Shown piece after piece: positions 2,142-50,706 of a stretch of 64,000 bases of DNA; position 1 is the stretch's first letter, and each line of letters starts with the position of its first letter. A model generated the notes under the pieces. The model was not told where the DNA came from. It made no database searches and saw nothing but the letters and a program-made list of their open reading frames with translations. The stretch is from Candidatus Falkowbacteria bacterium GW2011_GWF2_43_32. GTDB taxonomy: Bacteria > Patescibacteriota > Patescibacteriia > Patescibacteriales > UBA12465. The DNA is taken from NCBI GenBank assembly GCA_000999715.1, contig LCGL01000003.1:26942-90941 (forward strand), written 5' to 3'. Position numbers and translations under genes: made by a program.

Positions 2142-2173
2142 GGGGATTAAAAACAAAAGTTAATAACTAGCTA

Positions 2174-2202
2174 TTGACAAATAAAACTATTTATATTAGA
2201 AT
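2174..2202 (+). promoter_or_regulatory. Sigma70-type promoter for 2237-4062 unit
   Basis: TTGACA (2174-2179) - 17 nt - TAGAAT (2197-2202); preceded by GCTA, forming the recurrent 12-mer GCTATTGACAAA. Confidence 0.65.
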
Positions 2203-2236
2203 AAATTAATAATTTAAAAATAAAAAAAACTATTAT

Positions 2237-3016: not shown

Positions 3017-3093
3017 AAACAATTAATAAATTTAAATAACAGTTGTAGAATTATTAACGTATCTTAAAAAACAACCCAAAGGAGGTTCATATC

Positions 3094-4062: not shown

Positions 4063-4093
4063 GCACATTACATAATCAGCGGAAAAATAAAAA

Positions 4094-4125
4094 AGCGTCG
4101 AAATTATTCGGCGCTTGTTTTTTTT
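4094..4125. terminator. Rho-independent terminator, bidirectional
   Basis: Stem AGCGTCGAA/TTCGGCGCT (one G-U), loop ATTA, T-run 4118-4125, A-run upstream; between convergent genes. Confidence 0.75.
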
Positions 4126-4142
4126 GACTTTTAAAATTCGGT

Positions 4143-4883: not shown

Positions 4884-4939
4884 GGTTTCTATCGTTTTTA
4901 AATGTAGTTGTTAAAGAATTGAAAATTTATTTTCATTTA

Positions 4940-4968
4940 ATCTTAATATAAATTCAAACTTTTGTAAA
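4940..4968 (-). promoter_or_regulatory. Sigma70-type promoter for 4143-4883
   Basis: Minus strand TTTACA (4963-4968) - 17 nt - TAAGAT (4940-4945). Confidence 0.45.
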
Positions 4969-5063
4969 GAAGCAAATAAAAAAAATAGATTATCTTTAGC
5001 GTCTATAATTAATATGTAGAAATATTTAGCTAACTTTAGCTATAATTTATCACAGCTTCACTA

Positions 5064-5092
5064 TTGACAAAAACCAAAAAAAAGTATAAAAT
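5064..5092 (+). promoter_or_regulatory. Sigma70-type promoter for 5192-7552 unit
   Basis: TTGACA (5064-5069) - 17 nt - TAAAAT (5087-5092); context ACTATTGACAAA. Confidence 0.65.
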
Positions 5093-5191
5093 AATTTGAA
5101 CTATAATTTTAGGCTAATGGCGTAATTTATAGCTCGGGAGATTAAAAACCCTATAAAAATTGTTGTTTAAAAACTAAAAATCCAGATACTC

Positions 5192-6397: not shown

Positions 6398-6424
6398 AAT
6401 TGAAACTGTAAAAACTGAAAGATC

Positions 6425-7552
6425 ATGAAAAAAAACACCTTTAAAAATTGGAATCACCTGACGGGATTAATTATCCTTTTGAGTTTGTTAATCACCGGTT
6501 GTCGCGAGGCGCCGGATGATATCGGTAAAATTGAAAATCCTTGGACCGTTTCTATCGACGGCCCGACAGTGGCTTACGTCGGCGATACGATATCGCTGAC
6601 CGCCGTGTTGACCGGCAACGTTGTCGACTATAATCAAACGGCTTTTGACTGGATTATAAGCGATCCGGATGGCCTTACAAAAGCTTATACCGGTAAAAAG
6701 GCGAAGGTAGAACTGACTAAAGTCGGGGAATATTATGCCGAACTTGAAGCGACCGACTCTGACGGAGAAACAAAAACCGCCAATCTCGGTACCACCGCCA
6801 ATCGTCGCGGCGTAATTATTTCTTTAGGCCAAACGGCAGGGAACTATCTCTCCGGAGATAATCTTCAGTTTGACTCTTTGGGAATATATATCAAATTGAT
6901 TGCCGCGCCCGATGATTCGCTGGGCAGATTCACTCTGCACTTTGGAGATGATTTGGTTTTAGACACTACCATCGCGGCCACTCAAACGGTTCTAATGCAT
7001 CGTTATTCCGATTATGGAAACTATCAACTGGAATTCATAAACGACGAAACGATTGTCAAATCATTCACTATTGTCGCTCCCGATCCGGACGATGATACAA
7101 CGACAGTTTATGACGTTGACTTGGCGGAATATGACGACTTGACGGTACCTACGGATTATCCGGATGCCATGTTCGCTCAAGTGGACAGCGTTAATAACAA
7201 GTTTTATCTGCTTATTTCTGTCACGGCGACAGAAAGAGCCATCGGTCCCAATACCGAAATAACTTTAAAAGGGAACTGGGAAGGAAACAATTACAGCGAC
7301 TGGACAAGTTATTTGACCGGCACCGGCTACTCTCTGACGGTAACGACCGAAAAAGGCCGTTATCTTAAACTGGAGATAAACGATTATATCGAGGAATTCG
7401 AATATCGGGGAAACATCGTTTTGGACGACGGCAATTGGATTAACGCCCAAAACATGATGCCTTACTACGACATGGATCTGAGCATCGGAGATACCGGAAG
7501 CATTCACCTTATTATTCGTAACGGGAAAGTAATAGTCGTGATAAAAAAGTAA
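6425..7552 (+). CDS. Lipoprotein with two PKD-like Ig domains
   Basis: 375 aa; lipobox SLLITGC; FDWIISDPDG..GEYYAELEATDSDGETKTA and HRYSDYGNYQLEF match PKD-type WxxGD/HxY/GxY pattern. Confidence 0.65.
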   Translation: MKKNTFKNWNHLTGLIILLSLLITGCREAPDDIGKIENPWTVSIDGPTVAYVGDTISLTAVLTGNVVDYNQTAFDWIISDPDGLTKAYTGKKAKVELTKVGEYYAELEATDSDGETKTANLGTTANRRGVIISLGQTAGNYLSGDNLQFDSLGIYIKLIAAPDDSLGRFTLHFGDDLVLDTTIAATQTVLMHRYSDYGNYQLEFINDETIVKSFTIVAPDPDDDTTTVYDVDLAEYDDLTVPTDYPDAMFAQVDSVNNKFYLLISVTATERAIGPNTEITLKGNWEGNNYSDWTSYLTGTGYSLTVTTEKGRYLKLEINDYIEEFEYRGNIVLDDGNWINAQNMMPYYDMDLSIGDTGSIHLIIRNGKVIVVIKK

Positions 7553-7576
7553 TTTGTTGTAAGAAAATCAACAATC

Positions 7577-7603
7577 AAAGGCCTTTCTAAGAAAGGCCTT
7601 TTT
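7577..7603 (+). terminator. Rho-independent terminator for 6425-7552
   Basis: Stem AAAGGCCTTTC/GAAAGGCCTTT, loop TAA, followed by T-run. Confidence 0.8.
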
Positions 7604-7650
7604 CATTAACCGGACATCGCCGCTAAAATAAAATTAAATTTTATTAAATA

Positions 7651-7680
7651 TAAAAAAGGCTTTCCGTAAGGAGAGCCTTG
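7651..7680 (-). terminator. Rho-independent terminator for 7708-9000
   Basis: 10-bp stem AAGGCTTTCC/GGAGAGCCTT (one G-U), loop GTAA; on minus strand followed by T-run (complement of 7651-7657). Confidence 0.75.
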
Positions 7681-7707
7681 TTTGTTTGTTCGTATTTTGT
7701 CCGGTCG

Positions 7708-9000
7708 TTAATTATCTTGATATTTTAATTCCCAGACTAACTGCGTAATTTCTTGCGGCGAAGGTTGAAGAACCGTTGCCATTTCCTGATGATTTCCCAT
7801 TGATTTGGCACTATTCATCGGTGTCATAAACACCAAAGCGTCCAAATCTTCATTATACAAAGACCAAGCCGTGATATCTAATAATACACCGTCAACTCCC
7901 GGTCGAATCATAATCCAATTCGCGCCACCGGATTGAAAAGAAATAGAATCTTTGGCTACCATGGCGTACATGGACCCTCCATACATAGTCAAAGAAACAT
8001 CTTCAGACTGTTGAGTAGTTCCGTTAATGGCTCTAACAAACTTATTTTCACCTAAAATGCCGGAATAATCAATGTACAGATTTACTTGATCTTCCATAAT
8101 TTTTGCATCATTGTTAGCTACCGCTCCAGAAGGAATTTGAGGCGAATAAGACAAGGGAAAAGGAATACCATTAATGAAAATGAACCCAATGGCTATTGTG
8201 ATATTACCATTTAAAACTGTATCTAAATAATATCCACCCATCCTCTCTGCATTAACCGTAAACCACTGATTATTGATTGAGTGCACCTGCAACCAATAAA
8301 TATTACCCAAGGGCGTTGGAGTAATATTGCTGTTTTTGGCAATAATTTCCACTTCCATATAACCCGGATGCTCAACGCTGTTAATAACATTGGCGTCAAT
8401 CAACGTCCAATTATCACTTCCACCGATATTGCCGTGCGCCTGTATCGTTCCCACAGGATCATTATTCCAAGCCGTCAGCCACAGCCAGCGACAATAGTAA
8501 TAACCGTTGCCCATGTCATAAGCAGTATCCACCATTTGATTCAAATTGACCGGATCAAACGGATACTCATCCGAACATATCAAACCAATAGTATCTACCA
8601 ACGTAACAATTGACGAATCGGCGGAAATAATCAAATCCACGGCACCGTCCCGAATGGAATATGAATGAGCCACAATAATATCGTTTCCGGAAACTACTCC
8701 CACATTGCTGGTTTCGTCGCCCCAGGAAAAAACATAATTATCGAAAACTGCACCATCGGTAATTTTGAAGAAATTAGAGGTCTTGTAAAACATGGTATCG
8801 CCAACCTCCAAATAATCCGGAGCGTTCATTGATTTTAGTCTGCCATACTCCGTAGCAGAAATTTGTTCCACTAAAAAGTGGTAGGATCTAAATTCATGGG
8901 TTCGGAAATCATTGATAATGAATTCCTCACCTTCTTTCCTGCAAGAAAACAGGGATAAAAGCATCAGGCCACATAAGCCAAAAAACATTTTTGTCTTCAT
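7708..9000 (-). CDS. Lipoprotein with N-terminal PKD-like segment, function unknown
   Basis: 430 aa; lipobox LLSLFSC; FSWGDETSN..VAHSYSIRDGAVDLIIS is PKD-like; notably AT-rich coding sequence. Confidence 0.6.
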   Translation of the reverse strand: MKTKMFFGLCGLMLLSLFSCRKEGEEFIINDFRTHEFRSYHFLVEQISATEYGRLKSMNAPDYLEVGDTMFYKTSNFFKITDGAVFDNYVFSWGDETSNVGVVSGNDIIVAHSYSIRDGAVDLIISADSSIVTLVDTIGLICSDEYPFDPVNLNQMVDTAYDMGNGYYYCRWLWLTAWNNDPVGTIQAHGNIGGSDNWTLIDANVINSVEHPGYMEVEIIAKNSNITPTPLGNIYWLQVHSINNQWFTVNAERMGGYYLDTVLNGNITIAIGFIFINGIPFPLSYSPQIPSGAVANNDAKIMEDQVNLYIDYSGILGENKFVRAINGTTQQSEDVSLTMYGGSMYAMVAKDSISFQSGGANWIMIRPGVDGVLLDITAWSLYNEDLDALVFMTPMNSAKSMGNHQEMATVLQPSPQEITQLVWELKYQDN

Positions 9001-9057
9001 CTTTTCAGAGTTTAAATGATTGTTAAAAAACTATAGTTAATTTTCCATTAACTTATC

Positions 9058-9086
9058 AGTTTATATTAAATTTTAATTTTTGTCAA
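9058..9086 (-). promoter_or_regulatory. Sigma70-type promoter for 7708-9000
   Basis: Minus strand TTGACA (9081-9086) - 17 nt - TAAACT (9058-9063); 12-mer GCTATTGACAAA at 9079-9090 (minus). Confidence 0.6.
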
Positions 9087-9181
9087 TAGCAATAAGACGT
9101 CTTTACAAATCTTTCTATACATTACTTAAAATCATAATATATTACTTAATATTAGCTAAATAATAATTAAAGCTACAGCTA

Positions 9182-9209
9182 TTGACAAATAAACAAAATC
9201 TGTTATAAT
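9182..9209 (+). promoter_or_regulatory. Sigma70-type promoter for 9309-10957 unit
   Basis: TTGACA (9182-9187) - 16 nt - TATAAT (9204-9209); 12-mer GCTATTGACAAA at 9178-9189. Confidence 0.65.
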
Positions 9210-9250
9210 AAAGGGTTAAATTTTCTTTAACAATTTAGCGGAACACCGCC

Positions 9251-9297
9251 AATCAGTATAAGCTAAATAAACAAAAATCAGTATAAACTAATAAAAC
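9251..9297 (+). repeat. Direct repeat (2 x 22 nt, 25-nt period) in the 5' leader of 9309-10244
   Basis: AATCAGTATAAGCTAAATAAAC (9251-9272) / AATCAGTATAAACTAATAAAAC (9276-9297), 19/22 identical, ends 11 nt before the start codon and abuts the SD AAGGAGG. Confidence 0.8.
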
Positions 9298-9308
9298 AAG
9301 GAGGACTA

Positions 9309-10244
9309 ATGAAAAAAGTTATTATGTTTGCGCTTCTTATTTGGGGTATAGGCCTGAAAGCGCAAGACCTGGATGTATTCCAAGCTGACCTCTTATGGAA
9401 TTACCAGGGAAGCGATTACCAGCCTAACCGTTTAGGAAATGGCTGGCAGATTCAACCGGAAATACGTTATTATTTCCTGGAAGCTCACGGTAGCGGACTC
9501 ATTCCGTATTACCAGAATACTTTGACTTACGAGAAAAACTTTCTGGTCGGCATTTACTTTTGCGCCGCCTGGCAAGAAGAATGGAAGCGCGCCAGCGTAA
9601 CCGAATATCCTAAGATCATTGAAGGCATCTCAAAAAATGCCGGAATTCAAAAATTTGACTTCGGCCTGAGCTTGCAATATATTCCCGATCCGACGGTATT
9701 TCTTACTCTGGAAGCAGGAATGAGCATTAAAAGTCTTTACATCAAAAACGGTGTACACGACTCCGTACCCGAATATCCGTACTATCAGGGTGTGCCAATC
9801 AAATTCGGCATCCGATATCTGGATGACAGTTTTGATTTTTTCAACAAAATTAATTTATTGTTGGAAACCAATAATTCATTCCATGAATATCAATCCATTC
9901 AAAGCGGTGAAAAATTTTTTATTGACACCGCCGCAATGGCCGACGAACATTTTTTCGCCGTCAACTTGGAATGTAACATTTTGTCTCCATGGTTCAATCG
10001 CAACGCCCTATTAGACGTTTCCTTAATCAACCAATATCAATGGTATCAAGGAAAAGATTATTTCGGCCTGATGATGGACACGGGTAAAAACGAAGACTAT
10101 AAAGTCGGAATCGGCCTGGCGATACGTGAATTCCAGAAACTTGACGAGGCAATAAAAATTTCCGCCTTATTCGGACAATCCGGGTTTTCTCTGGGACTGA
10201 CGATAAAGCTCGGTCCTTTGTATGATTTATCTCCTAACCACTAA
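9309..10244 (+). CDS. Secreted beta-rich hypothetical protein
   Basis: 311 aa; strong SD; signal peptide MKKVIMFALLIWGIGLKAQD; Tyr/Gly/Asn-rich alternating pattern similar in style to 3094-4062. Confidence 0.6.
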   Translation: MKKVIMFALLIWGIGLKAQDLDVFQADLLWNYQGSDYQPNRLGNGWQIQPEIRYYFLEAHGSGLIPYYQNTLTYEKNFLVGIYFCAAWQEEWKRASVTEYPKIIEGISKNAGIQKFDFGLSLQYIPDPTVFLTLEAGMSIKSLYIKNGVHDSVPEYPYYQGVPIKFGIRYLDDSFDFFNKINLLLETNNSFHEYQSIQSGEKFFIDTAAMADEHFFAVNLECNILSPWFNRNALLDVSLINQYQWYQGKDYFGLMMDTGKNEDYKVGIGLAIREFQKLDEAIKISALFGQSGFSLGLTIKLGPLYDLSPNH

Positions 10245-10255
10245 AAATTTACGAA

Positions 10256-10957
10256 ATGGACACATCGGACAACAAAGAAAAAACTGCCAAGACCGGAACG
10301 AAAAAACCGGAAACAGAAGAAGAAAAAAAAGCTAAAGAAGAAAGATTAAAGCTTTGGCGCGAAAATGAGGCTAAGAGAAAAGCTGAGAAAAAACGTAAGC
10401 TGATGCTATTGATCATGAGTTTGGCGCTAGCAATAATTACATTTTTTCTTTTCCTGGGATACGTTCTGGGATATGTGAACATGAAAACTGCCAAAAAAAA
10501 TAATGACGACAGCTTTCAAAACGTTAACACACAAATATCCAATTTAGATTCGACGTTGATTAAAACTCAAAATCGGCTGATTGCAGTACAGCAAGAAACC
10601 ACCAATTTGGACTCAGCATTGGTTCAAACTCAAAACCAGCTGATTACAGCGCAACAAGAAATCACTAATAAATTGGAATCTAATTACCGGGCCGTCAAAA
10701 AACAAGTCAATAATGTGGACTGGAAATTAAAAACCGTTCAAAAAAAAGTGACGGAGATGGAGAAAAAAACTCAGGACAGCTTGGATAACGCAAAAGAGCG
10801 AGAAAAAACCATTCTTTTGCTATTGCTCAGTCAGAAAAAAACCATGGCCAAACAGGACAGCGTAATTACCGAATTAACGACAAAAACCGTTAAATTAGAC
10901 AGCGCTACCACGATAGCTAATGAAGCCCTGGTTAAAAAACACTGGCGATTACGATAA
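10256..10957 (+). CDS. Membrane-anchored coiled-coil protein with Lys/Glu-rich cytoplasmic head
   Basis: 233 aa; KE-rich N-terminus, one TM (LMLLIMSLALAIITFFLFLGYVLGYV), Q/N/T-rich heptad region with internal 21-aa repeat. Confidence 0.6.
   Translation: MDTSDNKEKTAKTGTKKPETEEEKKAKEERLKLWRENEAKRKAEKKRKLMLLIMSLALAIITFFLFLGYVLGYVNMKTAKKNNDDSFQNVNTQISNLDSTLIKTQNRLIAVQQETTNLDSALVQTQNQLITAQQEITNKLESNYRAVKKQVNNVDWKLKTVQKKVTEMEKKTQDSLDNAKEREKTILLLLLSQKKTMAKQDSVITELTTKTVKLDSATTIANEALVKKHWRLR
10541..10666 (+). repeat. Tandem 63-bp (21-aa) coding repeat, 2 copies
   Basis: 10541-10603 vs 10604-10666, 48/63 nt identical; NLDSTLIKTQNRLIAVQQETT / NLDSALVQTQNQLITAQQEIT. Confidence 0.85.
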
Positions 10958-11040
10958 TTGCCTACAATAAGCCAAAAATAAGGACGTTTTTCAAAAACGT
11001 CCTTTTTCATTTTTAATGATAGGTTTAATGATTAAACCTC

Positions 11041-11068
11041 TTGACAAAATCGTCATTTATGTTAAAAT
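11041..11068 (+). promoter_or_regulatory. Sigma70-type promoter (extended -10) for 11134-12549
   Basis: TTGACA (11041-11046) - 16 nt - TAAAAT (11063-11068) with TGT immediately upstream. Confidence 0.6.
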
Positions 11069-11133
11069 GATAAGATTTCTTAAAACATAAGAAATTTGAA
11101 AAATTGTAAATTAACAATCTAAATACCGAAATA

Positions 11134-12549
11134 ATGAAAAAAATCCTGTTTTTATTCGTAACGGCTGTATTCTTAATGATAGGATCGGCAGGAACCAACG
11201 CTCAAGGAAGCGTTAAGAGAATCAACGGAGTAATAAAGAACTCCGCTGACCGCGCCGTAGTATTCGGCTCTATCGCCAACGACCCGACACCGCCGGGAGG
11301 AACAATCACTCTAAAAGTAAACCAGGGAGAAAATATGATTCCCATATTATTCGCAAATCAAGCCGGAAACGCTCTGGACACCGTCACGGTAAAAGTTAAT
11401 TTTCACAGAGACGGCGACGTCTTTGAACTCACTACCGGACATTTAGGGAGATTTAATAATTCCAAACCCGACCTCACGGTTACTGCCGACAGAAATACCG
11501 GCAAAACGGTAAGCAATCAGTTGGACGGAATATTATTTTTTCTGGACCGGGGTATTTGCTTATCGCCGGGAACAAGCTCGCAAGAACTGATCGACCTTTC
11601 GCCTAACGAAAGAATAGTGATTGAAAAAAACTATCGCCTATTCTTTTTAGAAATTAGTGATTTCTTCGCCAAGAACGATAAGACGTATGCGGTCAGCCAA
11701 GAAACTTTGCTTCAAGGAAGCGGTCGCGACAGCATTATGGTGTCTTTAATCGCCGACGGAAGCGATTACGTTTTCATAGATGATCAAACCCGGGAAGTGA
11801 AAGGCATAAAATCGTCAAAAGGACGAGGCGGATATCAAAAGAATTTTGTTGAAGGCGCCAACACCATTTTAATGCAAACTCTGATGAATGGTGTCGCTCA
11901 AACAAGATACTACACTTTCATGGCTTCTAAAGGAAACACTACGGTTAGCCCGCCCGCCAGCGCTTTTGACAATCCGCCGCTATATTACGGCAGAAGAATC
12001 AAATTACCGCTTGCTGGTTTTGACAAGAGTTGCAGTTTCGAAATATTCGATCCTGTCAGCAAAACCTGGCTCAATGAAGTAATTATTGACGAAAACGGTT
12101 CTGTTAACGCTCAAACTTGCTTTCTCGGCATGAATCGCGTTCGGGTAAGCTATTTTGAAAAAACTCCTCAGGGCAGAATAAGGTATTCGTTTGAATATTT
12201 TAAACTGATTTCTGAAACAGACTCCGTTTTCAAAATAGATCCCAATTATTTCTGGTTACTGGCCGGAAAACCCGTGCCGGTTATTTTGAAAAATTCCGCT
12301 AAGAATGTTCTATTTCAACAAATAGAACTATGGAGTTTAAATCAACAGCTTAATCCCAGAAACATAGTGATTAAGAAGGACTATCCGACTGAAAAAACCT
12401 ATGTCAGAGAGGGAATCGCTCGCTTGCCGGGAAGATACACCGAAGGCTTAACCATCAGGAACCTGACCGTATCTTTCATTGTTTCTTCTCAAGACAAGAA
12501 CAAGCCGATAGAAATCAGAGATGAAAATATTGATCGAACGCAACGATGA
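11134..12549 (+). CDS. Secreted hypothetical protein
   Basis: 471 aa; signal peptide MKKILFLFVTAVFLMIGSAGTNAQG; no recognisable domain. Confidence 0.55.
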   Translation: MKKILFLFVTAVFLMIGSAGTNAQGSVKRINGVIKNSADRAVVFGSIANDPTPPGGTITLKVNQGENMIPILFANQAGNALDTVTVKVNFHRDGDVFELTTGHLGRFNNSKPDLTVTADRNTGKTVSNQLDGILFFLDRGICLSPGTSSQELIDLSPNERIVIEKNYRLFFLEISDFFAKNDKTYAVSQETLLQGSGRDSIMVSLIADGSDYVFIDDQTREVKGIKSSKGRGGYQKNFVEGANTILMQTLMNGVAQTRYYTFMASKGNTTVSPPASAFDNPPLYYGRRIKLPLAGFDKSCSFEIFDPVSKTWLNEVIIDENGSVNAQTCFLGMNRVRVSYFEKTPQGRIRYSFEYFKLISETDSVFKIDPNYFWLLAGKPVPVILKNSAKNVLFQQIELWSLNQQLNPRNIVIKKDYPTEKTYVREGIARLPGRYTEGLTIRNLTVSFIVSSQDKNKPIEIRDENIDRTQR

Positions 12550-12678: not shown

Positions 12679-13782
12679 TTATTTCACCTCTTCGTAAACC
12701 CGGGCGACATCTTTGGCAATATCCTCCCAATTAAATTCCTGTTTCACCCGTTGACGACCGTCAGCGGCCTTCGCCGCCACCGCCTCCGGACTGTCCAAAG
12801 CGGCCTGTAGTTTTATCTTTAAATCATCCACATTTTTATTGGCAAAAACAAATCCGGCCTCACCTAAGGCCTCCAAATTAGCCCGAATATCGCTCACCAA
12901 GCAAGCGGTTTGATAGCCCATCGCTTCCAACAAAGAAATAGACAGGCCTTCGCTTTCCGACGGCTGAACGAATAAATAAGCGTTGGAATAAAGCTCGCCT
13001 AAAGTCCGTCCGGTCTGATTGCCGGTAAAAATAATATTTTCATGACCGGCCGCGGAAGCGTGCAATTCGGCCACATAATCATCGGTATAAGCGCCGTCAC
13101 CGACGATAACCAACTTCTTATCGGTTTGCAAACGTTTATAAGCGTCAATCAAATATTGGATGCCTTTATGACGCACCAGACGGCCGATATAAACAAAATA
13201 ATCGTTTCCTTCCAGTCCCCAGCGTCTGATTTCCCGTACCGGAGTTTTTTCCATGATGGCGGCGCCGTTAGGAATATATAAGGAATTCTTATGAAATTCG
13301 CGCGGTACGTATTCCGTCAATTCTTTGGAAATAGTAATAATCCGGTCGGCCAAAGCACAGCCGATTCTTTCGCCGCAACGCAAATATAAGCGCGCAAACC
13401 ATCCCCATTTCTGGTGATAATAATCCTGGCAGTGAAAAGTAAAGACAATCGGCGTTTTCGGTTTGAATAATTTAACAATCCACATCAAAGACGCCGGACC
13501 GATAGATTGAAAATGAATAACGTCTACCCGACGAAAAATAAGGTCCAGACAAGCCAAAAAAGTATGAGAGATCGCTTCAAAATGTTTGCCGCGCAAACCG
13601 GGCAAATTAATGATTTTCACTCCCTTATATTCTTTCAGGCGTTCCGGCAAATAACCGTTACGGCTATATACAAAAACTTCCTGGCCGGCAGCCGCCAAGT
13701 TAACAGCCAAACTTTCCACGTATCTTTCTACGCCGCCAGTTTTAGCCGGTATACCTTTTTGTCCAATAAACGCAATTTTCAT
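12679..13782 (-). CDS. Glycosyltransferase family 4
   Basis: 367 aa; N-terminal MKIAFIGQKGIPAKTGGVERYV and C-terminal PSESEGLSISLLEAMGY motifs typical of GT4. Confidence 0.85.
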   Translation of the reverse strand: MKIAFIGQKGIPAKTGGVERYVESLAVNLAAAGQEVFVYSRNGYLPERLKEYKGVKIINLPGLRGKHFEAISHTFLACLDLIFRRVDVIHFQSIGPASLMWIVKLFKPKTPIVFTFHCQDYYHQKWGWFARLYLRCGERIGCALADRIITISKELTEYVPREFHKNSLYIPNGAAIMEKTPVREIRRWGLEGNDYFVYIGRLVRHKGIQYLIDAYKRLQTDKKLVIVGDGAYTDDYVAELHASAAGHENIIFTGNQTGRTLGELYSNAYLFVQPSESEGLSISLLEAMGYQTACLVSDIRANLEALGEAGFVFANKNVDDLKIKLQAALDSPEAVAAKAADGRQRVKQEFNWEDIAKDVARVYEEVK

Positions 13783-14002: not shown

Positions 14003-14965
14003 CTACAACCATTTCTTCTGCCTGAAAAACAAGAGCATGCCGACACAACCGATTAACATAATACCGATAATTATCCAAAATCCCCAGGGCTGATCTACAA
14101 AGGGCATATATTTGGCGTTCATGCCGAAAATGGCGGCCAAAAGAGTAAGCGGAAAAACAATCACGGAAAAAATAGTCAAAGTTTTCATGATATCGGTCAT
14201 CTGGTTATTCAACAAAGATTCGTTCGTATTGTTCAACACTTCCACCATTTCTTTCTGATTATCCAAAATTTCCCAAATCCGTTTGGAATGTTCCACTAAA
14301 TCGGCATAATATTTTTTGATGGCCCCTTTCTCCACGATACTGCTTTCTATCTCCAAGAGTTTCTGAAAAATATTTTTATGATTCTGAATAATTTTACGGA
14401 CATTGATAATATTGCGCCGCAAGTTCAAAATCTGTTCTACCGCTTCTTTTTGTTTACGGTCAAAAATCAAATCTTCAATCTCCGCCAGACTGATACTGTT
14501 CTCGTCCAAAAGCGGATAACAACTGTTAATCAAAACATTTAAAATTTCATACAATAAAATAGCCGACGATTCCAAGGAATAAGCCAAAAGGGAAGCGGGG
14601 TTTTTACGGCCCAAATTGAAAAAATCGGCCAAAACTTTTAAGGAATTGTTGTGGGCCGTAATCAAAAAACCGTGTCCGATGAAAAAATCGACTTCGCTGG
14701 CCACGATCCGACCTCCTTTAAACGTGGGGAAGTGCAGAATCAAAAAAAGATATTTGCCGCCGCGAAAAATTTGCGGCCGCTGAAAAGAAACCGCCGCCGA
14801 AGCCGATCGCAGATGCGCCAAATCAAAAGCATAATTACGGCGCAAATAATCAATTTCGGTTTTGCCGGCATTCACGATATTGAGCCATTTCAAACGCGAG
14901 GCCGATCGGGGATTATCAACCATCAGCTCTTCAATGCGATCGCTGATTTTTCTATAATTGGACAT
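14003..14965 (-). CDS. corA: CorA-family magnesium/cobalt transporter
   Basis: 320 aa; two C-terminal TMs with the GMN signature (AAIFGMNAKYMPF). Confidence 0.9.
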   Translation of the reverse strand: MSNYRKISDRIEELMVDNPRSASRLKWLNIVNAGKTEIDYLRRNYAFDLAHLRSASAAVSFQRPQIFRGGKYLFLILHFPTFKGGRIVASEVDFFIGHGFLITAHNNSLKVLADFFNLGRKNPASLLAYSLESSAILLYEILNVLINSCYPLLDENSISLAEIEDLIFDRKQKEAVEQILNLRRNIINVRKIIQNHKNIFQKLLEIESSIVEKGAIKKYYADLVEHSKRIWEILDNQKEMVEVLNNTNESLLNNQMTDIMKTLTIFSVIVFPLTLLAAIFGMNAKYMPFVDQPWGFWIIIGIMLIGCVGMLLFFRQKKWL

Positions 14966-15060
14966 AAAAATGAAGCTGGGCCGTCAATCGCCGTTCACTT
15001 TGACGAAAGACTGTATTTATAATAAAATAAGAGTATTAATTCTGTAATTGATTATAGCAT

Positions 15061-16314
15061 ATGGCCAATATTTTGGGAATAAATCTGAGCGAATTGAAGC
15101 GCGGGGAACTGGACAAAAAAATTGCAGAATTCCTGAGCGGCGGCCATCACTACCTGGTCACTCCCAATCCGGAAATAATTCTGGCGGCGCATCGCGATGA
15201 AGAATTATTCTATATTTTAAACAGGGCCGATTTGGTTTTGGCCGACGGTTTCGGCTTAAAAGTGGCCGGTTGGTTAAACGCTTGCAAAATATCACGTTTC
15301 ACCGGCGCCGATTTGACCTTGAAATTACTGCAAACAGCCGCCGTTCACGCTCAAAAGGTCATGATTCTCAATTGGCAAGACGGTTTAAGCCGAGCAACCG
15401 ATATCGAGGCCGCACTGCGACGTCGCTGGCCGGCATTGAATTGCCGCGCGCTGGACATAGAGCGTTCGCCGATTTTAAATGAGACGACCAGGGCAACTAT
15501 CAATGCTTTCGCGCCGACAATTTTATTTTGCACTTTCGGATCGCCGTTCCAGGAAAAAACCGTCTACCATAATTTGTCGTCCTGGCCGAGCGTCAGATTG
15601 GCCCTGGGAGTCGGCGGCGCTTTCGATTTCATTACCGAAAAAATAAAACGGGCACCGAAATTTTTCAGAATAATCGGCTTGGAATGGTTATGGCGCCTCA
15701 TTAAACAACCGAAAAGAATCAGACGAATCTATAACGCCACTTTAGTTTTTATGATGAAGGCTCTGCGCGCTCGCTTCGTCAATATCTGGTTGTACCGTCC
15801 CAACGTGGCTTGTCTGCTTTATAAAAAAACGACCGGAACCGTTAAAATATTATTGGTAGAAAGGGAAGACGAACCCGGCCACTGGCAATTGCCTCAGGGA
15901 GGTTTGGACGGCGAATCTCTGACCCAGGCCGGCACTCGGGAACTCCGGGAAGAAGTCGGCGCAACCGCCGCCGAGGTCCGGGCAACTTTCAAAAATTTAT
16001 ACCGGTATAAATTTACCGGCAATCGTAAATTCGGCCATGATAAAACTCGCACAGAGAAAATTAAAACTGAAAAAAATAAATCGAACAAATTGGACGAGCT
16101 GGAACAGAAACGCTATAAATACGATTACAAAGGCCAGAAGCAAGGCTTATGCGTCGCGGAATTTTTGGGCAACGACCGCGATTTGCAAGTAAACTTCTGG
16201 GATCATCGCGCCTGGAAATGGGTAGAGGCCGACCGGTTGACAGAAGAAGTTCATCCGGTGCGACGACCGGCCGCTGAAATATTTTTAGAAAAATTTAAAT
16301 CTTTAAATTTATAA
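15061..16314 (+). CDS. Fusion protein: WecG/TagA-type glycosyltransferase (GT26) + RppH-like Nudix hydrolase
   Basis: 417 aa single ORF; N-terminal LVTPNPEII..ADLVLADGFGLKVA (GT26); from residue ~245 YRPNV..HWQLPQGGLDGESLTQAGTRELREEVG (Nudix box) and RppH-like C-terminus. Confidence 0.8.
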   Translation: MANILGINLSELKRGELDKKIAEFLSGGHHYLVTPNPEIILAAHRDEELFYILNRADLVLADGFGLKVAGWLNACKISRFTGADLTLKLLQTAAVHAQKVMILNWQDGLSRATDIEAALRRRWPALNCRALDIERSPILNETTRATINAFAPTILFCTFGSPFQEKTVYHNLSSWPSVRLALGVGGAFDFITEKIKRAPKFFRIIGLEWLWRLIKQPKRIRRIYNATLVFMMKALRARFVNIWLYRPNVACLLYKKTTGTVKILLVEREDEPGHWQLPQGGLDGESLTQAGTRELREEVGATAAEVRATFKNLYRYKFTGNRKFGHDKTRTEKIKTEKNKSNKLDELEQKRYKYDYKGQKQGLCVAEFLGNDRDLQVNFWDHRAWKWVEADRLTEEVHPVRRPAAEIFLEKFKSLNL

Positions 16315-16340: not shown

Positions 16341-16451
16341 GCTGTCTGGCAACATATTTCTCCGCTTAGATGATTTCTGTGGTAAAAATTAATTAACATT
16401 AATTTTTACTTTACGAAATCATATGCGCTCCAAAATATATTGCCAGTCAGC
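16341..16451 (+). other. 111-nt three-tier imperfect hairpin (long inverted repeat) between the GT26-Nudix gene and gltX
   Basis: Outer 19-bp pairing 16341-16359/16433-16451 (17/19), middle 8 bp 16370-16377/16415-16422, inner perfect 12 bp GTAAAAATTAAT/ATTAATTTTTAC 16382-16393/16398-16409. Confidence 0.8.
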
Positions 16452-16464
16452 ATATAATTCATAT

Positions 16465-17922
16465 ATGCTATTTTTCAAAAATAAAATTCGCTTGCGCTTC
16501 GCGCCGTCACCGACCGGCTTTCTTCATCTGGGCAGTCTACGCGCCGCTTTATTCACCTATCTTTTGGCCAAAAGCCGGAAGGGACGATTTATTCTGCGCA
16601 TTGAAGACACCGATCAAAAAAGGGAAGTGTCGGGAGCGACCGATAATTTAATCAAAGTTCTGCGCACGGTCGGCCTGGAATTTGACGAAGGTCCGCACTG
16701 CGGCGGAAAATATGGACCCTACATACAAACGGGAAGACTGGGTATTTATAAACAACAAGCCGATCGGCTCTTGCAAACAGGCCAAGCCTATCGCTGTTTC
16801 TGTTCGCCCGAGCGTTTGACGAAAATGCGGGCGGCGCAAGAAGCCGACAAACAACCGCCACGTTATGATCGACTGTGCCGCGAGCTCAGCGTAGCCGAAT
16901 CCGATCGACGCGCGGCCGCCGGAGACTCTTTTGTGATTCGTCAAAAAATGCCGACGAACGGCGAAGTGACCGTATTTGACGAACTGCGCGGCAACATTAA
17001 ATTTTCGGCCGCCGACTTGGACGATCAGGTCCTGATGAAATCCGACGGCATCCCCACATATCAACTGGCCAATGTCATTGACGACCATCTGATGAAAATT
17101 TCTCACGTTACTCGCGGCGACGAATGGTTGCCCTCTTTTCCAAAAAATATTTTGCTCTACCGAGCTTTCGCTTGGACAGCGCCGAAATTCATCCACTTGC
17201 CCTTGATTCTGAACAAGGAGGGCGGAAAACTCAGCAAACGCCAAGGCGATGTCTTCGTGGAAGATTATTTGGCCAAAGGATATTTACCGGAAGCTTTAAT
17301 CAATTTTAGCGCGCTCCTCGGCTGGCATCCCAAAAACGATAAAGAAATTTGGTCGCTCAAAGAATTGAAAAAAGAATTTTCCTTATCCGGCCTCGGCGCC
17401 AGTCCGGCGATTTTTGACGCGGAGAAATTGGATTATTATAACGGCTATTATATCCGACAAAAATCATTATCGGCCTTGGCCGATTTATGCCGACCGTATC
17501 TGGAGGCCGCCGGTCGACCGGTAAAGGAAAAAGACAAATTGGAAAAATATGTCTCCCTGGCCCAGGACCGCATGAAAAAATTAATCGATATCGTGGAATT
17601 GACCGATTTTATATTTGCTCTCCCCGATTATAATTCCGAACTCCTCGGTTGGAAAACTTTAACTCCGGAAAGCGCCAAAAACAATTTACAAATTCTCAAA
17701 ACCGAACTGGAAAAAATCACGGCAGAAAAATGGAATAAAGACTATCTGGAAAAAACCGTTCTCGCTTGGATTAAAAATCGTCAGGAAAAAAACGGCGACC
17801 ATCTCTGGCCGATGCGCGTCGCCTTGACCGGTCTTAAAAACAGTCCCGGACCTTTTGAAACGGCCGCCGCCTTAGGCAGGGAAGAGAGTCTAAAAAGGAT
17901 AGCCAAAGCTATAAAAATCTAA
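16465..17922 (+). CDS. gltX: Glutamate--tRNA ligase
   Basis: RFAPSPTGFLHLGSLRAALF and KLSKR class-I motifs; start placed at Met15 of the track ORF (MLFFKNKIRLRF), alternative start 16423. Confidence 0.92.
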   Translation: MLFFKNKIRLRFAPSPTGFLHLGSLRAALFTYLLAKSRKGRFILRIEDTDQKREVSGATDNLIKVLRTVGLEFDEGPHCGGKYGPYIQTGRLGIYKQQADRLLQTGQAYRCFCSPERLTKMRAAQEADKQPPRYDRLCRELSVAESDRRAAAGDSFVIRQKMPTNGEVTVFDELRGNIKFSAADLDDQVLMKSDGIPTYQLANVIDDHLMKISHVTRGDEWLPSFPKNILLYRAFAWTAPKFIHLPLILNKEGGKLSKRQGDVFVEDYLAKGYLPEALINFSALLGWHPKNDKEIWSLKELKKEFSLSGLGASPAIFDAEKLDYYNGYYIRQKSLSALADLCRPYLEAAGRPVKEKDKLEKYVSLAQDRMKKLIDIVELTDFIFALPDYNSELLGWKTLTPESAKNNLQILKTELEKITAEKWNKDYLEKTVLAWIKNRQEKNGDHLWPMRVALTGLKNSPGPFETAAALGREESLKRIAKAIKI

Positions 17923-18009
17923 AATTTACTCAATTCTTGCCATTTATATATTTACAGCTTCTTTAAATTATGTTATAATTAAGAAATTACAGTTAAGCTC
18001 TCGTCAATT

Positions 18010-19287
18010 ATGAATACTTTCGATAACCAAGTCGATTTTGCCGCTAAAACTAAACGAACTTTCTTCCGCTATTGCAAAATAAGCTTGTTTTTGATTATTT
18101 TGATCGGCTTAATCGGCGCGGCGCCGGAGACTTTCAGCCAAAGTGGCAGTATCAACGATGAAATCAACAGTCTTAATTTAAAAATTCAAAATCAAAAAAA
18201 ACAATTGGAGCAATTAGCCACCAAACAAAAGGAGTATGAAGCGCAAATTGCGGCCAAGCAACGAGATAAGGCGAATTTGAACAACCAGTTGGCTATTTTG
18301 GAGAATCGCATTGCCAAAGCGCAATTGGATATTGAAGGCGCCAACTTGGAAATGGATAAAACCAGTCTAGAAATCAAAAAGGCGGAAATAGACAGTCTGA
18401 ATCTGGATCAAGAAATCGAGGAACAAAAAAATCACATTACCAATCTGCTGCGCTTAATGTACAAACAAGAACAAGTTTCCACCTTGGAAATATTGTTGAT
18501 GAACGATTCGCTGGCCGATTTTATGAATCAGATCAAATATCTGGAAAACGCCAACACGGAAATCGGCAAAAATGTGGCCGTTCTAAAACGCAACAAAGAC
18601 CAGTTGGAACATAATAAGGAAACTTTAATCCAAAAAAATCTGGAATTGGCGTCTTTAAAAAACCAACTGAAAGAACGGGAGGGAAATCTGATTTACGATC
18701 AGGAAAATAAAAGCTATCTGCTGGAGGAAACACGTTCCTCGGAACGGGAATATCAGGCTCTCTTGCAAAAAGCCAAACAAGAACAGCAACAGGCGCAAGC
18801 GGAAATAGCCAGCGCCGAACAGCTTATCCGGCAAAAGATGTCGCAACAGGACAAGAATCGCCTGGACAGCGGCAGCAGCGATATGGTCTGGCCGATTTCC
18901 AGCCACATGGTCACCGCCAGTTTTCATGATGCGGATTATCCTTATCGCAACATCATCGGCGAACATACCGGCATCGATATTCGCGCCAAACAGGGAACGA
19001 CTTTATCCGCCGCGGCCGACGGTTACGTCGCCAAGGTTAAATTTGACGGCAGTCGCAACTATGCTTATATCATGATTATCCACAGCAACGGCCTGGCGAC
19101 GGTCTACGGCCACGTTTCGGCCGTTTATGTCGCCACCGACCAATATGTCGTCCGGGGACAAGCCATCGGTCGTACCGGAGGCACGCCGGGCGGCGCCGGT
19201 TCCGGCAGTTTTTCCACCGGTCCGCATCTGCACTTTGAAGTCCGCCTGAACGGCTTACCGGTCAATCCGCTGAAATATCTGCCCTAA
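18010..19287 (+). CDS. M23 family metallopeptidase with N-terminal coiled coil (EnvC-like)
   Basis: 425 aa; TM/signal, long coiled coil, C-terminal HTGIDI..D..HLHFEV LytM motifs. Confidence 0.85.
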   Translation: MNTFDNQVDFAAKTKRTFFRYCKISLFLIILIGLIGAAPETFSQSGSINDEINSLNLKIQNQKKQLEQLATKQKEYEAQIAAKQRDKANLNNQLAILENRIAKAQLDIEGANLEMDKTSLEIKKAEIDSLNLDQEIEEQKNHITNLLRLMYKQEQVSTLEILLMNDSLADFMNQIKYLENANTEIGKNVAVLKRNKDQLEHNKETLIQKNLELASLKNQLKEREGNLIYDQENKSYLLEETRSSEREYQALLQKAKQEQQQAQAEIASAEQLIRQKMSQQDKNRLDSGSSDMVWPISSHMVTASFHDADYPYRNIIGEHTGIDIRAKQGTTLSAAADGYVAKVKFDGSRNYAYIMIIHSNGLATVYGHVSAVYVATDQYVVRGQAIGRTGGTPGGAGSGSFSTGPHLHFEVRLNGLPVNPLKYLP

Positions 19288-23450: not shown

Positions 23451-24500
23451 TTATTGACTGATTACCCGGCCCTGATCGTTGTTAAAATGATCGTCAAGCA
23501 AATCGGTGGTCGGCTGTCCGAAAGAACCGGTTTTTTCCTCGCCGGTCAGCGCATCTTTGGCATAATAACGCGTCATCATCAGCAAGGGCCAAGATTGTCC
23601 GACATGTTTTTCTTCGGGAATAAACCGCACTTCAAAACCAAAACGATAACTGTCGCTGGCCGGCGTTAATTCCGCTATTTTCCAAATTATCTGACGAGTG
23701 TCGGCGTTATAATCAAACTCTCCGGCCAGAAGCGAACGATCGCCGGCCAATTCTATATTTTCCGGCAAGCGCGCACTGAAGACCAAATTTTTGAATTCCC
23801 CGTCACTGGCCGCTTCCCAAAAAATCCAATAACTGGTCGGAATGCCCACGATCGGCGGCAAAGGACCGATACCCAACTGATCTCCTTGCGGGCTGGTATA
23901 ATAAGCGACACTCTTGACCGTCAAAGCCGCCACCCGAGTGAATGACGGCAAATCAAAATTATGTTTCAATAATTTGCCGCTAAAAATATATTCGCTATGC
24001 GCCTGCCAAGCGACTTGTCGCTGAGTGGTGGCGGTCGTAAAATAAGCTTTCAAATTCACTTCCCCGCCCTGACCGACGGGAATTGCCGTCCAAGTCAATT
24101 CTCGGCCGTTAATTTTAACCGCGGTATTTTCTTCCGCCAATTCCAAACGAGTTAAAACAAAAGCCTTATCGACGGGTGCTAAATTTATTTTCAGATTGCT
24201 AATCGCCGCCGCGCCGTTATTCTGAAAACTTATTTTCAAAGGCACACCCTCTTCCATTTTAACCGCACCGGAGACGGAAGAAAAATACATATCCAAAGGA
24301 GGATTATTCAAATCCAATGTCGGTCCGCTAAAGCCGTCCAGCCAGGAAATGTTCGGTCGATAGGAATACAAAGAAATTACGCCGATCGTCAAACAGATGA
24401 CGATAATGATCAAAGACAAATCCAAAACTAAGTGCCAACGATTTTTAAAATAAAAACGCTCAAAACGTCCGCGAAAATAGCGATGGATGATTTTAATCAT
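23451..24500 (-). CDS. Membrane-anchored surface protein with Ig/DUF11-like repeat region (paralogue of 62967-64000)
   Basis: 349 aa; N-terminal TM (LVLDLSLIIIVICLTIGVISLY); shares D..RQ[IV]IW[KE]I motif region with the last ORF of the window. Confidence 0.6.
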   Translation of the reverse strand: MIKIIHRYFRGRFERFYFKNRWHLVLDLSLIIIVICLTIGVISLYSYRPNISWLDGFSGPTLDLNNPPLDMYFSSVSGAVKMEEGVPLKISFQNNGAAAISNLKINLAPVDKAFVLTRLELAEENTAVKINGRELTWTAIPVGQGGEVNLKAYFTTATTQRQVAWQAHSEYIFSGKLLKHNFDLPSFTRVAALTVKSVAYYTSPQGDQLGIGPLPPIVGIPTSYWIFWEAASDGEFKNLVFSARLPENIELAGDRSLLAGEFDYNADTRQIIWKIAELTPASDSYRFGFEVRFIPEEKHVGQSWPLLMMTRYYAKDALTGEEKTGSFGQPTTDLLDDHFNNDQGRVISQ

Positions 24501-50692: not shown

Positions 50693-50706
50693 ATGATTAT
50701 GATTAA

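Follow-up and report, generated by a model that had tools for sequence, protein, structure and literature searches.

A conserved single-ORF fusion of a GT26 glycosyltransferase and an RppH-like Nudix hydrolase in Patescibacteria

Results

Gene content of the locus

We analysed a 64-kb stretch of DNA, referred to here as the window. An ORF at 15061-16314 encodes a GT26 (WecG/TagA) domain that is complete and includes the C-terminal tail (CTT); about four residues further on, a Nudix domain of the NudH/RppH type follows. The features of this ORF and its neighbours are as follows.

12679..13782, minus strand: GT4 glycosyltransferase that weakly matches DUF1972; conserved neighbour at about -2, listed as envelope-glycan context
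14003..14965, minus strand: CorA-type Mg2+ transporter, divergent upstream neighbour (context only)
14994..15028, plus strand: two sigma-70-like promoter matches that overlap, just before the fusion ORF in the region between it and the divergent corA gene (10/12 matches each; consensus match only)
15061..16314, plus strand: whole fused ORF, uninterrupted, 417 aa plus stop codon
15061..15645, plus strand: GT26 (WecG/TagA/CpsF) core domain, residues 1-195, with T34, N36, D62, R79, Q164 and E165 (Pfam, TIGR00696, PDB match, Foldseek)
15646..15780, plus strand: CTT of GT26, residues 196-240, with E208, R212, R219 and R222 and a long hydrophobic/basic helix at 217-239 (TagA alignment, AF2)
15775..15792, plus strand: junction, residues 239-244, a very short linker from the CTT helix to the first Nudix strand (alignment, AF2)
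15793..16020, plus strand: N-terminal part of the Nudix domain, residues 245-320, with YRPNV, HWQLPQGG, the Nudix box and Y316 (Pfam, RppH mapping)
15898..15963, plus strand: Nudix box GGLDGESLTQAGTRELREEVGA, G280-A301, with REUXEEXGU intact and a GX4E first loop
16021..16119, plus strand: Lys/Glu-rich insertion, residues 321-353, a predicted disordered hypervariable loop (AF2, alignment)
16120..16311, plus strand: C-terminal part of the Nudix domain, residues 354-417, with KGQKQ, WDH, WKWV, HPVRR and a C-terminal helix (RppH mapping, lupin Ap4A hydrolase alignment)
16423..17922, plus strand: gltX (glutamyl-tRNA synthetase), conserved downstream partner of the Nudix module (Pfam)
18010..19287, plus strand: M23 peptidase, third gene of the conserved cassette (Pfam PF01551)

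Together with gltX and the M23 peptidase gene, the Nudix module forms a conserved cassette, nudix-gltX-M23 peptidase. The gltX gene lies at +1 in 45 of 79 loci, with a median gap of 19.5 bp between the stop of the Nudix or fusion gene and the gltX start, and it also follows standalone and LigT-fused Nudix genes. The M23 peptidase, whose Glu/Lys/Gln-rich N-terminal half is probably a coiled-coil judging from its sequence, was found in 53 loci and also in L081, L084 and L094. A CorA-type gene occupies -1 or -2 in 43 loci, and the GT4 glycosyltransferase cluster was found in 40. No tRNA genes were found in the 64-kb window.

The fusion is a genuine and conserved protein

The first-pass annotation had described this ORF as a TagA/WecG-type GT26 domain fused to an RppH-like Nudix domain, a description borne out by the ORF call, by the homologues and by Pfam, whose PF03808 and PF00293 profiles both match the 417-aa product. 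The motifs quoted there, LVTPNPEII, ADLVLADGFGLKVA, GVGGAFDF, YRPNV (residue 245, nt 15793), the Nudix box, LYRYKF, KGQKQ and WKWV, all lie where they had been placed.

That two genes were wrongly joined, through a frameshift or a chimeric contig, has a negligible probability. Independently made assemblies from NCBI, ENA (two samples) and Logan give 11 contigs that encode an identical 417-aa product, and a single ORF is retained by hundreds of homologues at 33-62 % identity, which together effectively refute an artefact. Our check for misjoined genes found nothing in support of one for the fusion ORF, and the split pair at L083, whose halves lie in different frames, may itself result from a frameshift error. 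The best 120 database matches (52-62 % identity) are full-length and carry both domains without exception. The single-ORF architecture is present in 74 of 80 related species-level genome loci and in 68 of the 88 further loci L081-L168; the holders among the best 120 matches and the 74 loci are all Patescibacteria (CPR bacteria). Pairwise identity is alike in the GT half (56 %), the Nudix half (58 %) and the junction (61 %), and the AF2 model of the whole protein reached a pLDDT of 88.7. The fusion is thus a genuine, conserved two-enzyme protein of Patescibacteria.

Some records are labelled "uncultured Gammaproteobacteria" or "Bacillota", and a spread beyond Patescibacteria was rejected: these loci have the corA-fusion-gltX-M23 synteny, with neighbours 60-70 % identical. 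An internal translation start yielding a separate Nudix product was rejected because the candidate residues M231 and M232 are not conserved. Finally, short high-scoring "standalone" Nudix matches (P0121-P0126, P0155) proved to be fragments, frameshifted or mis-started pieces of fused genes; P0121 is identical to the C-terminal half of P0002 but for one residue, while P0155 falls into one cluster with a fused protein of 414 aa.

The first-pass annotation knew of no characterised example of this architecture. Literature searches (Nudix with WecG/TagA/undecaprenyl, Patescibacteria teichoic acid, CPR RppH) likewise returned no description of the fusion; the architecture is nevertheless common in Patescibacteria, where public databases name it automatically as "WecB/TagA/CpsF family glycosyltransferase" or "Nudix hydrolase domain-containing protein". 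It is uncharacterised, yet not rare.

The GT26 half retains the catalytic residues of TagA

The GT26 half was matched by PF03808 (residues 56-224, E 2.5e-33, 115.7 bits against a cut-off of 27.4) and TIGR00696 (101.3 bits against 69), and it matched TagA of PDB 7MPK at E 2.5e-26. Its AF2 model has the GT-E fold and was superposed by Foldseek on 5WFG, 7MPK and 5WB4 with TM 0.83-0.88 on target and rmsd 2.1-2.5 A. T34, N36, D62, R79, Q164 and E165 are invariant in 36 homologues (the 36 relatives of our alignment A1) and align to TagA T37, N39, D65, R83, Q167 and E168, Asp65 being the catalytic base of TagA. Equally invariant are E208, R212, R219 and R222 of the CTT, which align to TagA E210, R214, R221 and R224; in TagA these four residues are needed for catalysis, and the tail also binds the membrane. 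The CTT helix at 217-239, predicted by AF2 with pLDDT ~90, is rich in I, L, V, F and M, and by analogy with TagA the tail of the fusion protein probably binds the membrane as well.

The specificity of this half is less closely defined. It scored 102.7 bits with the TarA equivalog NF041710 (cut-off 350) and 91 bits with the WecG model NF002980 (cut-off 323). Since equivalog-level similarity to TarA is not reached, the match does not imply the same donor and acceptor as in TagA/TarA, the UDP-ManNAc:GlcNAc-PP-undecaprenol ManNAc transferase. Neither tagO, mnaA nor RNase genes were found within the 64-kb window.

The Nudix half retains the metal and phosphate ligands of RppH

PF00293 matched residues 245-324 (E 1.2e-12, 48.4 bits against a cut-off of 21.1), the match being cut short by the Lys-rich insertion, and Foldseek placed the fold of the C-terminal half with RppH, NudB and Ap4A hydrolases. 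RppH was the top Nudix neighbour (TM ~0.75 on target, 23-24 % identity). The earlier statement that this half tracks E. coli RppH closely thus holds for motifs and fold; it does not extend to overall identity, as BLASTP aligned the two at 40 % over the first 77 residues only (E 4e-12). The best NCBIfam matches are also RppH models, at scores below their cut-offs: with NF001938, the best of them, the window protein scored 64.1 bits and a fused homologue lacking the insertion 80.8, short of the cut-off of 116 that a cyanobacterial control protein passed at 121.

Ligand conservation was counted over 109 fused sequences, in which the counterparts of the RppH Mg2+ ligands (Q37, E53, E57, E120) and phosphate contacts (R8, N10, R27, Y77, Q95, K140) are conserved. 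RppH R8, N10, R27, Q37, E53, E56, E57 and Y77 correspond to R246, N248, R268, Q279, E294, E297, E298 and Y316, kept in 100-109 of the 109; Q95 corresponds to Q359 (109/109) and K140 to R401 (103/109). E120 is represented by D381, with Asp in 88 sequences and Glu in 21. In the Nudix box the EX7REUXEEXGU pattern is intact (R293, E294, E297, E298, G300), its first Glu, E285, being Gln in 4 of the 36 aligned relatives. All 36 share a box that is one residue short, GX4E instead of the canonical GX5E, a feature overlooked in the first-pass annotation. At the nucleobase cleft, the base-stacking R27 is kept in 104 of 109 sequences, S32 is replaced by His, V137 by His in 86 of 109, and F139 by Val/Ile. 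In distant fused members the E120 position holds Glu and the box loop is of normal length. Given the mostly Asp E120 position and the altered V137/F139 pedestal, the substrate specificity of the Nudix half may have shifted after fusion.

On these residues both active sites look catalytically competent, and the protein is in all appearance bifunctional. It is very improbable that the Nudix half is an inactive passenger, either decaying or serving merely as a structural cap for the GT26 tail. The shortened box loop, the non-invariant first Glu, the scores under the RppH cut-offs and the repeated loss of this half described below would fit such decay; against it, every metal and phosphate ligand is retained, conservation of the Nudix half matches that of the GT half, and its domain model is confident outside the loop.

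The Lys-rich insertion, noted earlier as interrupting the Nudix domain, is indeed present. It is a lineage-specific variable loop rather than a family feature: its residues have AF2 pLDDT < 50, its length ranges from 6 to 44 aa in homologues, and pairwise identity within it is 16 %. A search for a second Nudix in the window and 80 related loci, a sample of loci rather than whole genomes, found one unrelated Nudix-box ORF only, in L056.

The junction is short and conserved

The linker has a nearly fixed length, with a one-residue gap in only a few of the 36 aligned sequences. Residues 236-250 show the 61 % pairwise identity given above for the junction, which AF2 modelled with pLDDT ~89-90. The long retention of the fusion, the conserved junction and the confident predicted packing between the domains (pTM 0.79) suggest that the arrangement may be more than a neutral accident.

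Split, partnerless and alternative arrangements

The same locus also occurs in unfused states. In Ca. Uhrbacteria (L081), GT26 (251 aa) and Nudix (145 aa) are separate genes with a 76-bp gap, followed by gltX and M23. Four loci (L084, L085, L135, L137) have Nudix-gltX-M23 and no GT26, and in L094, L095, L110 and five cluster representatives LigT is fused to the same Nudix upstream of gltX-M23; the LigT half, an RNA 2',3'-cyclic phosphodiesterase, scores above its equivalog cut-off. GT26-only genes at this locus are nested at three places within the fused clade of a neighbour-joining (NJ) tree calculated without support values, and one of them has a possible relic of the Nudix C-terminus. The Nudix half was lost at least three times while GT26 was retained.

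These arrangements bear on the earlier proposal that the Nudix domain acts on the nucleotide product of the glycosyltransferase or on a pyrophosphate-linked intermediate. Such coupling could take the form of UDP hydrolysis, which would relieve product inhibition or recycle UMP, of destruction of excess UDP-sugar, or of cleavage of a polyprenyl-diphosphate(-sugar) at the cytoplasmic membrane face, which would regenerate polyprenyl-phosphate. In favour of coupling, UDP is a competitive inhibitor of TagA (PMC6493773), and E. coli RppH can bind NDPs and NTPs, hydrolyses them slowly and takes orthophosphate off diphosphorylated 5' ends (PMC7144940), chemically analogous to UDP->UMP or C55-PP->C55-P. 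The Nudix domain is moreover joined directly to a tail that is predicted to bind the membrane and form part of the active site, by a conserved linker and in a confidently predicted arrangement, and E120 and the RppH base-cleft residues are altered in the fused clade. However, these alterations track the clade and not the fusion, as the distant fused members with Glu at E120 and a normal box loop indicate, and the retained base-stacking Arg and phosphate ligands fit a nucleotide or RNA substrate rather than a lipid. Coupling is also disfavoured because the orthologous Nudix fills the slot upstream of gltX free-standing, with no GT26 gene, or fused to the RNA-end enzyme LigT, and because in at least three lineages GT26 still occupies this locus with no Nudix attached. 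We consider it unlikely.

A regulatory link, in which the GT26 half would be an allosteric partner of the Nudix half and the supply of envelope precursors would tune RNA 5'-end decapping and mRNA decay, appears still less probable. The signal would be the UDP-sugar or lipid-linked acceptor, bound or unbound. In E. coli, binding of DapF, which makes a cell-wall precursor, stimulates RppH (PDB 6D1Q, 5YGU; PMC6061855, PMC6061791), and the fusion protein likewise links an RppH-like domain, in this case covalently and in a confidently predicted arrangement, to an enzyme of envelope synthesis. The parallel is pure analogy, however: GT26 and DapF are unrelated, and sister lineages have the Nudix without GT26.

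Discussion

Probable fusion by gene adjacency with independent roles

We regard as the probable explanation that the protein is bifunctional and arose by fusion of neighbouring genes, each half keeping its own job, the GT26 half in making lipid-linked glycans and the Nudix half in pyrophosphohydrolysis of RNA 5' ends or NpnN; the most likely origin is gene adjacency and not coupled chemistries. The Nudix gene would have been the resident first gene of the Patescibacteria nudix-gltX-M23 peptidase cassette, into which an upstream GT26 gene ran in the lineage of the window, and the fusion would then have been retained with a short linker of nearly fixed length. By analogy with TagA, the GT26 half would work at the cytoplasmic membrane face, using a UDP-sugar as donor to glycosylate a sugar acceptor that is linked to polyprenyl diphosphate, with the CTT presumably binding the membrane and completing the GT26 active site. 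The Nudix half most likely keeps the activity of its family, removing terminal phosphates from 5'-tri- or diphosphorylated or Np4-capped RNA ends or acting on dinucleoside polyphosphates. The scores under the RppH cut-offs and the short Nudix box with its variable first Glu weigh against this reading. Joined to the GT26 tail by so short a linker, the Nudix half would now be held at the membrane beside that tail. The fusion itself, the conservation of both active sites, the alternative arrangements and the synteny are observed; from them we infer what substrates the halves use, that the protein sits at the membrane and that the two chemistries are independent.

A functionally integrated protein is an unlikely alternative to this independence. 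Rigid against the GT26 tail, the Nudix domain would have been re-tooled (short box loop, E120 to Asp, His/Val pedestal) for a diphosphate of the glycan pathway, either clearing inhibitory UDP or acting on the cytoplasmic face as a polyprenyl-diphosphate(-sugar) phosphatase that regenerates the lipid carrier, or it would couple envelope-precursor status to RNA decay like a covalent RppH-DapF.

Hardly any proteins of Patescibacteria, whose genomes are very small, have been characterised experimentally. An abundant, conserved fusion protein whose halves both look catalytically competent gives access to two poorly understood sides of their biology, envelope glycopolymer synthesis and RNA 5'-end metabolism. 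It also documents well how tight gene packing turns operon neighbours into multidomain proteins, since natural examples show the two domains fused, separate, reduced to one or combined with another partner. Should the Nudix half prove to be the RppH of its hosts, these bacteria would have an RNA pyrophosphohydrolase tethered to the membrane; should it serve the glycosyltransferase instead, it would add an accessory activity of a new kind to the assembly of lipid-linked glycans.

Comparison with known systems

TagA/TarA (Thermoanaerobacter italicus, S. aureus, B. subtilis; PDB 5WB4, 5WFG, 7MPK, 7N41) share with the GT26 half the fold (the TM 0.83-0.88 given above), the pocket and the catalytic base, and with the fusion protein a C-terminal tail with three essential arginines and a hydrophobic helix. 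They differ in sequence, at only ~27 % identity, and TagA stops after its tail whereas that of the fusion protein continues directly into the Nudix domain.

The nearest structural neighbour of the Nudix half is E. coli RppH (NudH/YgdP), an RNA 5' pyrophosphohydrolase and Np4 decapping enzyme (PDB 4S2X/4S2Y, 6VCK-6VCR, 7SP3), with which it has YRPNV, WQxPQGG, all Mg/phosphate ligands and R27 in common. Unlike RppH, it has a box loop one residue shorter, does not reach the equivalog cut-offs, carries Asp at E120, His at V137, Val/Ile at F139 and His at S32, has the short 80-92 loop replaced by the variable loop of 6-44 aa, and is covalently joined to an enzyme predicted to be membrane-associated. 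The top PDB sequence match of the Nudix half (E 1.1e-11) is the plant-type Ap4A hydrolase of Lupinus angustifolius (PDB 1F3Y, 1JKN), which aligns to both parts of the domain, including KGQ.Q and W.WV, but is a standalone soluble enzyme.

As regards partnerships, the E. coli RppH-DapF complex (PDB 6D13, 6D1Q, 6D1V, 5YGU) likewise ties an RppH-type Nudix physically to an envelope-precursor enzyme, although RppH and DapF bind each other non-covalently and DapF, a diaminopimelate epimerase, has no relation to GT26. NadM-Nudix (NMN adenylyltransferase/ADP-ribose pyrophosphatase; PDB 2QJT, 2R5W) shows that a Nudix hydrolase can form the C-terminal part of a bifunctional enzyme; there both activities belong to one pathway, NAD metabolism, and the Nudix subfamily, partner and arrangement differ (TM 0.24-0.28). 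Within other Patescibacteria, the LigT(ThpR)::Nudix fusions (L094; P0164, P0189, P0218, P0230, P0177) have a Nudix of the same RppH-like clade, likewise C-terminal and in the slot directly upstream of gltX-M23, but joined to an N-terminal RNA 2',3'-cyclic phosphodiesterase and ~31 % identical to that of the window protein.

The GT26::Nudix fusion is genuine and recurrent

The first-pass annotation placed a TagA/WecG-type glycosyltransferase (GT26) and an RppH-like Nudix hydrolase in one reading frame, and this was borne out: window 15061-16314 (+) is an uninterrupted single ORF of 417 aa in which every quoted motif was found. Assembly error, and with it an artefactual origin of the fused ORF, was excluded, as independent assemblies and samples yielded 11 contigs coding for an identical 417-aa protein (GCA_003489845.1 at NCBI, from Ca. 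Falkowbacteria, two assemblies in ENA and one in Logan). All of the best 120 matches among 5.8 billion proteins were full-length and carried both Pfam domains, at only 52-62% identity to the window protein. In one-genome-per-species contigs, a single-ORF fusion of 385-485 aa was present in 74 of the best 80 loci; a second set (L081-L168), made up of eight look-up loci and the 80 metagenomic relatives closest to the standalone Nudix, contained 68 fused loci out of 88. Record titles refer to Falkowbacteria, Parcubacteria, Jacksonbacteria and the Patescibacteria group. Titles reading "Gammaproteobacteria" or "Bacillota" were regarded as unreliable, because those loci show the gene order of the others, with neighbours 60-70% identical. 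When the Nudix half alone was searched exhaustively against 1.84 billion representatives, most of the proteins found were fused, with standalone Nudix proteins of 145-170 aa appearing from E about 1e-16 onward. The architecture is already in databases under automatic names, and our literature search for the fusion did not find a describing paper. In Patescibacteria it is common, annotated by automatic means and uncharacterised, and it combines known kinds of domain in a new way.

Domain organisation and conserved residues

Pfam domains of the window protein
Residues 56-224: Glyco_tran_WecG (PF03808), E 2.5e-33
Residues 245-324: NUDIX (PF00293), E 1.2e-12

The PF00293 match reaches no further than position 81 of the 134 in the profile, since the Nudix domain is split by a 33-residue Lys-rich insertion (residues 321-353), also recognised in the first pass. 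The insertion is disordered in the AF2 model of the protein (mean pLDDT 88.7, pTM 0.79), and the region is unconserved in homologues, where its length is 6-44 aa. At the junction, the tail helix (217-239) is followed by about four residues and then the first Nudix strand. Across an alignment of 36 members, junction length differs by at most one residue, and its pairwise identity (61%, versus 56-60% for the domains) indicates conservation like that of the domains. T34, N36, D62, R79, Q164 and E165 of the GT26 half are invariant in this alignment, as are E208, R212, R219 and R222 of its C-terminal tail. The Nudix box lacks one residue in its first loop (GX4E) in 36/36 aligned sequences, and its first Glu is replaced by Gln in four. 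Functional residues of E. coli RppH were taken from PMC7144940 and mapped onto 109 fused sequences, using an RppH sequence checked against PDB 6D13.

RppH residues, window equivalents and occurrence in fused sequences
R8: R246, 106/106
N10: N248, 100/109
R27: R268, 104/109
Q37: Q279, 109/109
E53, E56, E57: E294, E297, E298; 109/109, 108/109, 109/109
Y77: Y316, 108/109
Q95: Q359, 109/109
E120: D381, D in 88 and E in 21
K140: R401, 103/109

Alternative states of the locus

The gene order in the window is corA (-), fusion (+), gltX and M23 peptidase; a GT4 glycosyltransferase gene lies further upstream, and genes for a Xer recombinase, ftsQ and alr follow downstream. Among 79 loci, gltX is present in 55, in 45 of them as the next gene, and the M23 peptidase in 53. 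From the stop codon of the fusion to the start of gltX, the median distance is 19.5 bp (20 bp or less in 28/54), and no terminator-like site was found before gltX on the + strand of the window. The nudix-gltX-M23 cassette (window 16423-19287 and related loci) is conserved in several lineages of Patescibacteria, and its genes often lie no more than 20 bp apart. In the different context of L086, a Nudix gene also sits two genes upstream of an M23 peptidase.

Three other arrangements retain the Nudix gene. The Ca. Uhrbacteria locus L081 is split: its genes for GT26 (251 aa) and Nudix (145 aa) are 76 bp apart and are followed by gltX and M23; L083 is another split pair, or a frameshift. Four loci (L084, L085, L135 and L137) have no GT26 gene ahead of Nudix (168 aa), which is followed by gltX, M23 and Xer. 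In a further three, a 327-aa LigT::Nudix protein directly precedes gltX and M23:

L094:3464-4447 (also L095, L110): LigT/ThpR::Nudix fusion; proteins P0164, P0189, P0218, P0230, P0177

This architecture occurs in five separate 50%-cluster representatives, and its LigT half scores above the "RNA 2',3'-cyclic phosphodiesterase" equivalog cut-off (86 versus 65.7 bits). One such protein would be predicted to process both 3'-cyclic-phosphate and 5'-polyphosphate RNA ends. A third partner of this Nudix clade is seen in P0163 (258 aa), where an RppH-like Nudix precedes an MGMT/Ogt-type DNA_binding_1 domain (PF01035).

Conversely, L066, L070, L073, L074 and L079 retain GT26 (240-259 aa), with no fusion-type Nudix found within 10 kb in any of the five; all except L066 keep at least one window neighbour (corA, gltX or M23). 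In a rough NJ tree, these GT26-only genes nest within the fused ones at three positions. In L073, the interval from the GT26-only gene to gltX includes a 28-codon stretch (10873-10956) that resembles the Nudix C-terminal helix (EIFLEKFRSI; tblastn E 0.012) and may be what is left of a deleted Nudix domain. Within the cassette, the Nudix gene is the constant member and GT26 the variable upstream neighbour.

Other features of the window

786-12549: about 12 kb of ORFs of 230-470 aa, almost without Pfam matches; the sole ones are weak, GNVR/Wzz-like at 2237-3016 and PKD at 6425-7552. The block adjoins the GT4 gene; its products may be surface proteins or related to glycans.
23451-24500 (-) and 62967-63995 (-): two paralogous ORFs of about 345 aa that cluster together by similarity; the first copy, the one scanned, has no Pfam match and is syntenic in about 23 related loci.
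29636-32125 (-): 829-aa protein with weak matches to TrwB/VirD4-like type IV secretion coupling protein and HerA ATPase, set among housekeeping genes (dnaX, serS).
48217-51732 (-): [FeFe]-hydrogenase large subunit with ferredoxin-like domains, adjoining a NuoF-like FMN/4Fe-4S subunit and GAPDH, an arrangement suggestive of a module for fermentative H2 evolution in this small genome.

Origin and function of the fusion

Joining of two adjacent genes is the most probable origin of the fusion, ahead of an enzyme purpose-built for coupling. In the simplest history, GT26 and nudix would have been adjacent, as in Uhrbacteria, loss of the GT26 stop codon would have created the fused ORF, and this would then have been retained for long, with occasional loss. 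Since both halves are similarly constrained and keep their catalytic residues, the product is probably bifunctional. Three observations argue for a retained NudH/RppH-type role of the Nudix half, directed at nucleotides or RNA ends and independent of GT26 chemistry: Nudix occurs alone, it is also joined to an RNA-end enzyme (LigT) at the same locus, and GT26 also occurs without it. The base-stacking Arg27 equivalent is kept as well, which points in the same direction. As a consequence of fusion, the TagA-type tail could plausibly tether the Nudix to the membrane.

The coupled chemistry proposed in the first pass, in which the Nudix half would act on the nucleotide product of the glycosyltransferase or on a pyrophosphate-linked intermediate, appears unlikely beside these observations. 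It would accord with UDP being a competitive inhibitor of TagA and with RppH slowly hydrolysing NDPs and NTPs and taking orthophosphate off diphosphorylated ends. That the GT26 half instead tunes the Nudix half seems very improbable; its precedent is the cell-wall-precursor enzyme DapF, which regulates E. coli RppH. Both ideas are kept alive by the conserved linker, predicted to be rigid within a confidently modelled arrangement, and by derived changes near the catalytic site in the fused clade.

Comparison with TagA and RppH

No solved structure spanning both halves was present among the Foldseek matches. The N-terminal half matches TagA/TarA folds (TM 0.83-0.88, AF2 model) and falls in the WecB/TagA/CpsF superfamily (TIGR00696, 101 bits versus cut-off 69), far under the TarA and WecG equivalog cut-offs of NCBIfam. 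By direct alignment, its invariant residues correspond, in order, to T37, N39, D65, R83, Q167 and E168 of T. italicus TagA, and those of the tail to E210, R214, R221 and R224. According to the TagA papers, these residues are catalytic or substrate-binding, D65 is the catalytic base, and membrane association and activity both need the C-terminal tail. Profile, fold, catalytic residues and tail all identify a GT26 superfamily member; there is no demonstrable orthology to TagA/TarA, since its score is below the equivalog cut-off and neither tagO nor mnaA lies near the fusion gene.

The earlier statement that the C-terminal half tracks E. coli RppH closely holds for motifs and fold, but not for overall sequence, where BLASTP identity is 40% across only 77 residues. 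RppH models are its best NCBIfam matches (64 bits versus cut-off 116); S32 and V137 of RppH are replaced by His, and F139 by Val/Ile. With the curated equivalog thresholds not reached and the box loop non-canonical, we do not class it as RppH proper. Lupin Ap4A hydrolase is its best PDB sequence match (1.1e-11), with RppH next (about 6e-7), whereas by Foldseek E. coli RppH ranks best (TM about 0.75), ahead of NudB and Ap4A hydrolases. Among Nudix hydrolases, the C-terminal half belongs to the NudH/RppH/plant-Ap4A-hydrolase clade, and its predicted likeness to RppH lies in the ligands and the fold.
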